64,000 nt of DNA from NCBI RefSeq assembly GCF_003334355.1, contig NZ_QOWP01000008.1; one strand, 5' to 3'. This stretch comes from Escherichia coli (GTDB taxonomy: Bacteria; Pseudomonadota; Gammaproteobacteria; Enterobacterales; Enterobacteriaceae). The position numbers are program-made. This document shows positions 58,801-61,800 of this stretch, one piece after another. Position 1 is the first letter of the stretch, and the number at the start of each line of letters is the position of its first letter.

Positions 58801-61800
58801 GGAACCATTGAACTGGACCCTAACGATGATATCGATGCCTTACCCGACGGCATCTACGCCCAGGTGGCGGTTTACTCCGACCATTTCAGCCATGTTTCGG
58901 TGATGCGGAAAGTGCTGCTAAGAATGACCAGCTGGATGCATTATCTTTATTTGGATCATTGAGGGGGAGGGGGGAGATTATGGAACTTTGCTCCTTGTAA
59001 GGACTAATTATTTTTGCATATTACTTCATTAGCTGCGATGATTTTTCTTTAATATTCATTATGTTAATAAGTTCTGGATGAGTGTGCTCTCATTGGATTT
59101 TTTATCCGTCTTGTTCTGCCGCAGGATGAGACTATACATCGTCGAGATCGCAATGATGATATGAGTTGTTCCTCCTGCGACGGCTCTAATCAAAAAAGAG
59201 CAGGAGTGCTTTTCCATCTATTGCGATGATGGCTTTATTATCTGAAGGATGACAGTCACATTTAAAAAATATTTAATCTATAGATCACAATGTAGGGTCA
59301 TGGAATATATGTATACAACTATTTTCTTCTTCACTTTTAATTATCGTATTCATTATAAAACTAAGTTAAAAAAACTCCTGGAGAGTGAGGTATTAATATA
59401 TTTTTAAATAAAATTAAGTTATCATTCATCGATGCACTTTATAGAATCATCAATGGCCATAATAGTACTATTAACTCTCAATTTTATATTTTTATCATCA
59501 CTACAAATATTAACTGAATTTATATCAATGATTTTTTTATTCTTATCTTTTATTTTATTTACTGTTTCAATGCAATCAGCGGCAAGTTGGAGTGGATTTA
59601 TATTTTTCAGATATGGTCTTATGATCTTTCCCTTACTTAATAAATAGCATGTATAGGATTCGGAAAGTCCAGCATCTATTTTGTACCTCATTATATTAGA
59701 TAAGGATGTGAGAAATTCCTTGTTATCATTCGCAGCCATATATGCCAGTCCGAGTTCAGCCTCTGCGGCCTTACAGGCAAAATAGCTTAGTGAACACGCT
59801 TTTCGTCCCTCTTTAGTACTGGCTGATATTAGTGCCCATAATATTGCTTTGTCTGCCAAATCTAACTCTCTCTGAAATTGTCTTGCAGTAACTGCACTCG
59901 CAGAAATAGAGAAAAAAATACAATTGTTAATAACCTTGCCATATTTTTTAGTCCGTAACTGTTAATGTGCTATCTGGCTCTGAAAATATTAACTCATTTA
60001 ATTTTTGCATGTCATTAGATAAACCAGTTATACAACCCTCGGAACAGAATCGAGGTCCTAAAGACGGACCAAAAGCGTTTAAACAACTATGTATTGAAAA
60101 TCCATTGCGATTATAAGTTCCTGTATTAACTGACGGTACTAATCGTATGCCGTCAGGTTTTCTATTGCTTGCTCCCGGGTCATTAACATTCCAACTCCAT
60201 AGGCCTTGAGGTATTGGCCATCTATTTATAAATGTGTACAACGGGGATTATTTTTACATTGCATATTATTACCAGAAGCGACTGGAATACTAAGCACATC
60301 ATAAAAATTATCATCACATGGTATATCTGAAACACACGAAAGCATACCTAAAGTTATGCTGTATAAACAGGTGGCTAATCCCAAGGGGATCGATTCCAGA
60401 AATCGGGTTCAACGGATACTGATAAAAATTCCACCTACCTTCCAGCCCAATCGGAGCCTGAGTGTTATACCGCCCCTGCTGCGGTTAATGTTACCGATAC
60501 TAGTTATAGTACAGCCCTGATTCATCATCATACTACTGCTGCGGCAGTCTGATGAACTATTGCTTTTACGGATTCTCCTTATTCTTCCTTCTATCCATTC
60601 GCTTTAGCTTTTTGAGCTCTTGAAGTTTGCTCTTTGCATCAATATTACCGTTATTTACAGCGAATTCCATCCAATAAATAGCTCTATTCAAATTATAATA
60701 TTCTGATAATGTTGGATTTTTATCTGATAAAAAGACCCCATAATTAAACTGCGCTGTAACATTCCCCTGAGATGCTGATCTTTCCAAGAATCGCAATTGT
60801 TTGTAAATGTTATTTTTAGTAAAGCAGTAATATTGATATAGTCGAAATGATGCCTCTGAATCACCATGTTGTGATTTATACTTCAGTTTCATCAACTTTT
60901 TTTCACTTAAATCATAGGTCATTGCTGTAGACCCCATCATACTTTCGTTTTGTTTTATTTTCACATCAGCACCATGCAATTGACAAATAAAAGAGAAATA
61001 AAAAAATAGTAACAAGCATGCTTTCATACATCTACAACCTATCTTATATCACTGGGTTTTTCTGGCGTACCTTGCATATTAGAAATGGGGTGCCCAGATG
61101 GCCCATATGTTATCCAATTACCAAGGTCTTTTGTTGTTATAGCCATTAGATCCTTATTTGAATTAAGGTTCGTTGGTGCTGTTAGCACTGTATCCATTTT
61201 TAACTTACCATTAGTTCCTCGCCCCCACCACGTCCATAGCGTGTCAGGTCCTATTACATTTGTATGTAACTCTTTAGCTAATTGGCTAGCAAATGAATTT
61301 TGTCCTTTACCTGTATTACAAGAAAATAACCAAACTGTCATCCCATCTTTATAATTCCCATCAAATTTAATTAGATATGCTAGATCTTTAGCTGTCATGA
61401 TACTGCGCGTTGCGGATTCAATAGATGTGGGGGTACCATGCCCCCCGATTGTGAAAACGCCTGGGATATTAATCTCATCAGCTACAGAATGGATAAGATC
61501 ACTTTCGGGGTATAAATTTATATCAACCAAACCTTGCGGATCTACATTTATGACCGGATTCAACGGATACTGATAAAAATTCCATCCCCCCTTCAGTCCA
61601 ATCGGATCCTGAGTGATATACCGCCCCAGCAGCGGGTCATAATAGCGGTGGCGGTTGTAATACAGGCCGGACTCCTCATCATACTGCTGCCCCGGCAGGC
61701 GGATAAGCTGCTGCAGCTGATGCGGGTTCTCTTCATTCAGCAGGTTGCCCCATTCATCGTATTCTGCGCACCATTCTGTTGTCCCTTCCTTGCTGATAAG

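Follow-up and report, generated by a model that had tools for sequence, protein, structure and literature searches.

What, if anything, is still encoded at the distal end of the Rhs array in the rhsA locus of Escherichia coli? We examined this question in a 64,000-nt stretch of one E. coli genome (contig NZ_QOWP01000008.1 of assembly GCF_003334355.1; hereafter the window), where a first-pass annotation had described a short minus-strand region beyond yibG as a decayed third toxin/immunity module. We conclude that this region is very probably a broken, dissociated Rhs tip, the oldest and most distal one of the rhsA (yibF–yibH) locus, and that it probably encodes nothing functional. Alignment with intact orphan modules from other strains resolves it into a dissociated Rhs tip, made up of a core-end fragment and a toxin remnant, and an Imm57 immunity gene, all of them broken. 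Together with the gene order, this alignment bears out the earlier description; the pseudogene calls made for the same locus in K-12 by the NCBI Prokaryotic Genome Annotation Pipeline (PGAP) agree that all three pieces are pseudogenised, and re-annotation of the region yields no intact open reading frame (ORF). The coordinates of all features are given in Table 1.

Table 1. Features of the distal rhsA locus, by position in the window.
Feature	Positions	Strand	Remarks
Region under study	59422-60565	minus	third dissociated Rhs tip in the rhsA locus, and the most distal one
Decayed Rhs core-end fragment	60381-60563	minus	184 nt; …DPIGL…NFYQYPLNP…DPLG; begins 3 nt past the yibG stop codon
Toxin, N-terminal third	60226-60380	minus	…ASGNN…CKNNPRCTHL, stop; inside mechanical 52-codon ORF 60226-60384
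Toxin, C-terminal two thirds	59948-60228	minus	…NRWPIPQGLW…KPDGIRLVP…IHSCLNAFGPSLGPRFCSEGCITG…TVTD, stop; inside 97-codon ORF 59948-60241
Imm57 immunity pseudogene	59422-59942	minus	ATG at 59942; body is the 145-codon ORF 59422-59859
ISAs1-family (H-rpt) transposase gene relic	59027-59259	minus	internal fragment; between Imm57 pseudogene and yibH
yibG	60566-61027	minus	
yibJ-like orphan tip	61039-61983	minus	
yibA	62025-62882	minus	
rhsA	62888-63976	minus	last 362 codons only in the window
yibH	57826-58962	plus	followed by yibI, mtlADR

The region opens with the decayed end of an Rhs core. When 60380-60565 was compared with the window by blastn, it matched just two other Rhs core ends (63309-63457 and 61555-61704), with 79% identity over ~150 nt (E=1e-32), and over 160-184 nt the fragment is 75-78% identical to other core ends. 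The homology had been noted before and put at about 85% identity over 60403-60560; the homology stands, while the figure has to be lowered to 76.6%, since 85.7% is reached only in the 3' 77 nt (60404-60480) and identity is 69.9% for 60481-60563. Five stop codons in the Rhs frame (TAG at 60557-60559, 60533-60535 and 60500-60502, TAA at 60491-60493 and 60485-60487) fall within 28 codons, all upstream of the DPLG motif, which is still readable at 60380-60391. A +1 insertion at ~60385-60389 lies within the codons of that motif (GAT CCC CTT GGG) and puts the toxin out of the Rhs frame, so that the reverse-strand translation is broken around DPLG much as first reported. The Asp of DPIGL has been replaced by Ala (APIGL), no start codon is found in frame with the core fragment, and base changes over the whole fragment comprise 24 from GC to AT against 13 from AT to GC. 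The fragment, with its DPxGL motif, directly precedes a variable tip, which identifies the element as an orphan Rhs tip.

The variable tip is the remnant of a toxin with an L,D-peptidase domain of the Tlde1/DUF2778 (Tox-LD-peptidase) family. A 1-nt deletion at ~60225-60228 creates a TAA codon (60226-60228) and splits the toxin into ORFs of 52 and 97 codons. Intact toxins from strains THO-010, S1-SRL-01-C and E17 align codon by codon with the N-terminal third, which keeps the family motifs ASGNN and CKNNPxC; the remnant also carries an in-frame 9-nt deletion at 60274/60275. The C-terminal part retains the catalytic block with the family-invariant H, C and C-S-x-G-C, its motif IHSCLNAFGPSLGPRFCSEGCIT corresponding to H-x15-S-E-G-C-I, and the near-invariant Gly of RGPIP is replaced by Trp. 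Taken alone, this 97-aa remnant gives weak, sub-threshold Pfam matches (Tlde1_dom 0.0083, YkuD 0.038). The 97-codon ORF had been judged to lack a credible start, and indeed it has neither an ATG nor a Shine-Dalgarno sequence, its sole start being a mechanical TTG; it is simply the C-terminal part of the toxin cut off by the 1-nt deletion. Given the two frameshifts, the missing start codon and the missing Rhs shell, we would expect that no toxin can be made, or delivered, from the window.

The family assignment draws on the intact alleles. The intact orphan of THO-010 matches the Pfam RHS domain and Tlde1_dom (PF10908, DUF2778; E=1.7e-6), and PGAP names the orthologues in S1-SRL-01-C and E17 'tlde1 domain-containing protein'. 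An exhaustive HMMER search of representatives recovered 207 relatives of the toxin, those named coming from Candidatus Accumulibacter, Obesumbacterium, Ralstonia and Paraburkholderia, and full-length Rhs proteins of 1377-1570 aa bear the same domain straight after DPxGL, at identities of <=54%. In an alignment of 23 homologues H104, C106, C119, S120, G122 and C123 are invariant, as are C8, C19, G40-N41-N42, C48 and N51. The toxin motif is near the published Tlde1 motif, HXX14-17-(S/T)HGCh (PMC9638812), with Glu in place of the His before Gly. For the AlphaFold2 model of an intact allele (predicted local distance difference test score, pLDDT, 89.7) the 12 best Foldseek matches in the PDB are without exception folds of the L,D-transpeptidase or L,D-carboxypeptidase type, Bd1075, DpaA, Pgp2, Csd6 and Ldtfm among them (E down to 5e-5, query-normalised template modelling score up to 0.62); Tlde1a is not among these top matches. 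A phmmer search of the toxin against PDB sequences gave no match, and NCBIfam models matched neither the toxin nor the 97-aa ORF, the repaired Imm57 or YibG.

Immediately beyond the toxin lies a small ORF, closely 3' of an A+T-rich tip: the ATG of the immunity gene is located 5 nt past the toxin stop, and the G+C content is 36.5% in the toxin and 33.4% in the immunity gene vs 53.8% in the rhsA core end. It had been proposed that this gene has its start in one frame and a Sel1-like body in another. The first part of that description holds. The signal-peptide frame (59862-59942, MARLLTIVFF…) runs for 26 codons to a TAG at 59862-59864, and the signal peptide and the 145-codon body are in different frames because of a 1-nt deletion in a T run inside the signal peptide, which has seven bases in the window (T7, 59912-59918) and eight (T8 or CT7) in in-frame alleles; the gene measures 521 nt here vs 522 nt in intact alleles. 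With one T added, the sequence encodes a 173-aa protein, MARLLTIVFFFSISASA followed by VTARQ…, that matches Pfam Imm57 (PF15596) with E=1.1e-47. The 145-aa ORF alone matches with E=1.6e-48 over model positions 1-100 of 100, and the conserved D, SE and C residues of the family are present in KIDAGLSESYTC. The body is Imm57 and not Sel1-like: a Sel1/TPR (tetratricopeptide repeat) profile gave no match to the immunity protein at E<=10, and the best BLASTP match to YibG, which is itself only weakly Sel1/TPR-like, reached E=0.39 across 21 residues, that is, no similarity. For K-12, O157:H7, O104:H4 and others PGAP gives the label 'Imm57 family immunity protein, frameshifted'. As translation no longer runs through the toxin ORF whose stop precedes the natural ATG by 5 nt, efficient expression of Imm57 from the window appears unlikely.

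The pairing of these two families matches exactly one predicted by Zhang et al. 2012 (PMC3482391), in which Imm57 is found with Tox-LD-peptidase (or Tox-Caspase) and RHS repeats: an LD-peptidase toxin with H, S and C, fused to RHS repeats and encoded beside Imm57. The Imm57 described there consists largely of alpha helices and conserves D, SE and C, and the window reads …KIDAGLSESYTCY…; the pair in the window differs in being a decayed rather than a functional example of Tox-LD-peptidase/Imm57. The pair is also similar to the Salmonella type VI secretion system (T6SS) pairs Tlde1/Tldi1 (Tae5/Tai5), with which it shares the DUF2778/PF10908 toxin domain, the His/Cys catalytic arrangement, the predicted L,D-transpeptidase-like fold and an immunity protein with a Sec signal, as expected for a toxin acting in the periplasm. 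The Tlde1 preprint (bioRxiv 10.1101/2020.02.18.954545) mentions Rhs–DUF2778 fusions and, for a periplasm-acting toxin, an immunity protein exported by Sec. The toxin of the window would have acted on peptidoglycan in the periplasm. The two systems differ in that Tlde1a is a stand-alone 173-aa effector whereas the toxin domain in the window is a former Rhs tip, in that Tldi1a is a DUF2195 immunity protein whereas the immunity protein here is Imm57, and in the motif, which is (S/T)-H-G-C in Tlde1 and S-E-G-C in the window.

The population data give the order in which the parts were lost. Among 3363 genomes that match the local sequence, T7 is found exactly in 3204 and T8 in 38. Eleven T8 genomes were looked at, and in 10 of them PGAP calls Imm57 intact; the toxin ahead of it is dead, as in the window, and identical to that of the window at every lesion. 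Because the T8 strains carry the identical dead toxin, the toxin died first and the immunity gene later. This also limits an earlier suggestion that the relic may encode protective immunity: it does not apply to the window, which has T7, and finds support only for the other strains, in which T8 is present and Imm57 is called intact. A second homopolymer in the Imm57 pseudogene (59532-59538, minus strand) is hypermutable as well; A7, as in the window, is in frame, while A8 is found in K-12 and O2:H16 BA92, A6 in CFSAN004176 and A5 in O157:H7 PV15-279, and O104:H4 has a 5-nt deletion at 59547-59551 in place of an A-run change. In the T7 lineages the A8 (K-12, BA92), the A5 (O157:H7) and the 5-nt deletion (O104:H4) are later, independent indels, which is the pattern of free decay.

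This history would begin with the 3' end of an Rhs protein, in which a core end with the PxxxxDPxGL autoproteolysis motif was presumably fused to a ~145-aa L,D-peptidase toxin, with a Sec-exported Imm57 immunity protein encoded five bases downstream of that ancestral toxin. Newer tips (yibJ-type/yibG, then RhsA-CT/yibA) would have recombined onto the rhs core and displaced the old tip downstream to a silent position. Once severed from the Rhs delivery shell the tip decayed, through the stops and the +1 frameshift in the core and the 1-nt deletion in the toxin, and in a later step the T8 run of the Imm57 signal peptide lost one T. In the state represented by the window, the sole long product would be the 145-aa Imm57 body without its export signal, and any translational coupling of Imm57 to the upstream toxin ORF would be lost. 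The C-terminal displacement model and the yibF–yibH locus were described by Jackson et al. 2009 (PMC2935791). Since incoming tips push older ones downstream, the oldest tip is expected to be the most distal one. On the minus strand the modules follow each other in the order rhsA-CT/yibA, yibJ-like tip/yibG, region under study, H-rpt relic and yibH, and every genome examined has the module as its final element ahead of yibH, whichever main Rhs tip or other orphans are present, which fits the displacement model. The relic can be read as a clean natural record of the order of decay in a displaced Rhs tip: delivery lost and toxin broken, then the immunity gene lost by homopolymer slippage, then further indels.

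Intact counterparts exist in rare strains. In THO-010 and Res13-Sevr-PER07-33 the orphan is open through DPLGL to …TVTD and is followed by an intact 173-aa Imm57, in E17 both toxin and Imm57 are intact, and in S1-SRL-01-C the toxin is intact and Imm57 is broken by a different, independent 5-nt deletion. Strains with intact versions can thus be named for the toxin (THO-010, Res13-Sevr-PER07-33, E17) and for the immunity gene (O121:H19 and others). Between the toxin of the window and the intact alleles the synonymous divergence (dS) is 0.26-0.29 and the ratio of nonsynonymous to synonymous divergence (dN/dS) is 0.22-0.24. This low ratio indicates that most of the divergence accrued while the gene was functional and that decay is comparatively recent; if intact pairs evolve at a dN/dS (ω) of ≈0.17, the neutral phase would account for ~0.02-0.03 substitutions per site, as a rough split. 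The divergence is unevenly distributed, being ~13% between the window and THO-010 at 60440-60081 and <=3% at 60080-59422, and THO-010 and E17 show the opposite pattern. A sharp recombination breakpoint (~60081, minus strand) is located inside the toxin remnant. Because the divergence pattern flips between allele pairs at this point, the alleles of the toxin/immunity pair are mosaic. In the flanking yibH and yibI, divergence is only 0.3-2.5%.

Several observations weigh against the view that the whole region is the dead remains of one displaced tip. The 5' 83 nt of the core (70% identity, five stops) are far more degraded than the toxin, whose 145 A+T-rich codons include no stop that arose by substitution. 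Had a single displaced unit decayed neutrally and uniformly, neither this degradation of the 5' core nor the toxin dN/dS of 0.23 would be expected, and we rejected that account; the degradation could reflect an older origin of that piece or a junction left by insertion of the yibJ/yibG cassette. The 145-codon Imm57 body is free of stops despite 33% G+C and holds the whole Pfam domain, and residual cytoplasmic expression of this body from a TTG may still take place. The loss of function itself is a prediction from the reading frames. Finally, the full-length ancestor to which the toxin would have been attached is a reconstruction: no full-length Rhs protein with a close (>65% identical) copy of the toxin was found, a word-indexed search for such a parent returned short orphan-type proteins only (<=250 aa, with 60-64% identity outside E. 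coli, in Ralstonia and Paraburkholderia), and none of the E. coli genomes examined has this toxin tip attached to a full-length rhs.

The T run also raises the question of whether Imm57 is dead or switchable. The T run, together with the second A run, could serve as slippage-prone ON/OFF tracts, T8 being regained on meeting Rhs/Tlde1-armed attackers or low slippage at T7, in transcription or translation, giving partial protection. We consider such a switch improbable, and equally improbable its corollary that the in-frame T8 alleles of O121:H19, O6:H16 enterotoxigenic E. coli (ETEC) and others are revertants or selected alleles that protect against circulating Rhs/T6SS L,D-peptidase toxins, with T7 as a reversible OFF state. 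T8 is not assembly noise, as it occurs in coherent clades (O121:H19, O6:H16 ETEC) and the Imm57 proteins annotated as intact comprise four or more distinct accessions. Two yibH haplotypes occur with T7 and with T8 alike, and the T run and a single-nucleotide polymorphism (SNP) at 59437 are seen in all four possible combinations, so either the T run changed more than once or recombination shuffled the alleles. Of the alleles sampled, 10 of 11 with T8 are otherwise intact and 4 of 8 with T7 have extra indels, and Imm57 dN/dS between the allele classes is ~0.3. The tracts do vary in length among strains (T7/T8, A5-A8), but T8 is present in only 38 of 3363 genomes, recombination could also produce the four-gamete pattern, and the samples are phylogenetically non-independent. 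T7 is present in 95% of carriers and T8 in ~1%, which fits loss better than a balanced switch; the secondary frameshifts of K-12, BA92, O157:H7 and O104:H4 and the 5-nt deletion of S1-SRL-01-C are signs of ongoing decay; and a run of 7-8 bases is short for efficient phase variation.

In an O6:H16 ETEC-type lineage with intact T8 Imm57 (L007, L010, L012, L013 and L016) yibG is split into ORFs of 41 and 108 aa (locus positions 1434-1895). As yibG is split where Imm57 is intact, different immunity genes of the array are broken in different lineages.

A silent cassette that could be re-armed, with recombination at the core fragment fusing the toxin to a full-length Rhs as with Salmonella orphan rhs genes, is less probable still, and we regard it as very unlikely. 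Orphan tips are commonly regarded as reservoirs for recombination (PMC3150448; PMC2935791), and the relic resembles the orphan Rhs-CT (C-terminal)/immunity modules described by Jackson et al. 2009 (PMC2935791) and Poole et al. 2011 (PMC3150448) in its core-end piece, A+T-rich tip and small immunity ORF, as well as in its place at the end of the array, downstream of a full-length rhs, in the same orientation and with core-end homology kept. But whereas many described orphan tips are intact and can be re-armed, the relic is broken in all three parts and has almost no homology left for recombination. With the rhsA core end it has a single exact run of 26 nt in common (60408-60433), compared with 356 nt for the yibJ-type orphan, so that the earlier proposal that the relic can donate sequence is weakly supported. 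A crossover in the 26-nt run would lie upstream of the +1 insertion, and the fusion would therefore keep both this insertion and the -1 deletion of the toxin, and would also bring in a frameshifted immunity gene. The yibJ-like orphan tip has an unbroken 314-codon ORF on the minus strand (61039-61983). Over 479 nt (61529-62007), including the 356-nt exact run, it is 96% identical to the rhsA core end, and this long homology makes it a good recombination substrate; in O157:H7 PV15-279, CFSAN004176 and O2:H16 BA92 the yibJ-like tip is joined to a full-length Rhs and followed directly by yibG.

That the 97-codon ORF or the toxin remnant could be a working stand-alone L,D-peptidase deserves almost no credence: the catalytic H…S-x-G-C block is intact and in some pipelines the 97-aa ORF has been called as a protein (P0009, with 480 member sequences under the label 'type IV secretion protein Rhs'), but the fragment lacks the first ~55 residues, and with them three of the model's beta strands as well as C8, C19, G40-N41-N42, C48 and N51, all invariant. 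It has Trp where RGPIP has its near-invariant Gly, neither an ATG nor a Shine-Dalgarno sequence, nor any domain for secretion or delivery; its Pfam support is sub-threshold (0.0083), and PGAP leaves it unannotated.

The relic is not new but an ordinary, PGAP-annotated pseudogene cluster of known families that is common to most E. coli. By megablast the stretch 59380-60620 was found in 3700 of 5426 complete E. coli genomes, chromosomal in every case, and is >=99% identical in 3330 of them; the top database identity of this 1241-nt stretch is 99.8%, which means that the strain of the window is absent from the complete genomes searched, and the K-12 counterpart is 99.7% identical over the 1241 nt. 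The gene order of K-12 BW25113 (rhsA–yibA–RHS pseudogene–yibG–RHS pseudogene–frameshifted Imm57–yibH–yibI–mtlA) matches that of the window, and the homologous K-12 locus shows a full-length rhsA. PGAP gives the K-12 counterpart of the core-end fragment the name 'RHS repeat-associated core domain-containing protein' and treats it as a pseudogene (internal stop, missing N-terminus); the next gene is 'Imm57 family immunity protein', a frameshifted pseudogene. In locus, in annotation and, nearly throughout, in sequence, the K-12 rhsA-linked pseudogenes from yibG to yibH are thus the same as those of the window. They differ from the window in the second frameshift of K-12 (A8 at 59538), which is absent from the window, and in three SNPs private to the window (60500, 59601 and 59390; seen in 0 of 17 sampled E. 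coli genomes), of which the G at 60500 creates an additional stop codon compared with K-12. In the same 17-genome sample the adjacent 1.5 kb of yibH/yibI has no window-private SNPs. The K-12 pseudogenes between yibG and yibH would be those named yibS/yibW/yibV, with yibU downstream. Beyond tidy annotation, in which the distal pseudogenes of the rhsA locus are now assigned to the Tlde1-type L,D-peptidase class and the Imm57 family, the relic matters little.

The relic next to yibH belongs to the classic architecture of Rhs elements and not to the toxin module. In blastn it is 75% identical over 245 nt (E=6e-42) to the ISAs1 copy of E17, and tblastx pairs IIAIDGKALLLFFD with VIAIDGKTLRHSYD; the window reads IIAIDGKALLLFFD followed by a stop. 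We take this H-rpt relic to be, probably, the yibU of K-12. Promoter and terminator scans gave background level only. In K-12, where the published order is yibJ > yibG > yibV > yibU at 81.2 min, genomic SELEX (systematic evolution of ligands by exponential enrichment) placed an RpoD holoenzyme site, TTAACT-15-GATAAT, between yibV and yibU (PMC3946193), which is not inside the toxin/immunity module. The nearest match in the window is a promoter-like TTAACT-18-GATAAT (59340-59369, minus strand), with an 18-nt spacer, located just past the Imm57 stop.

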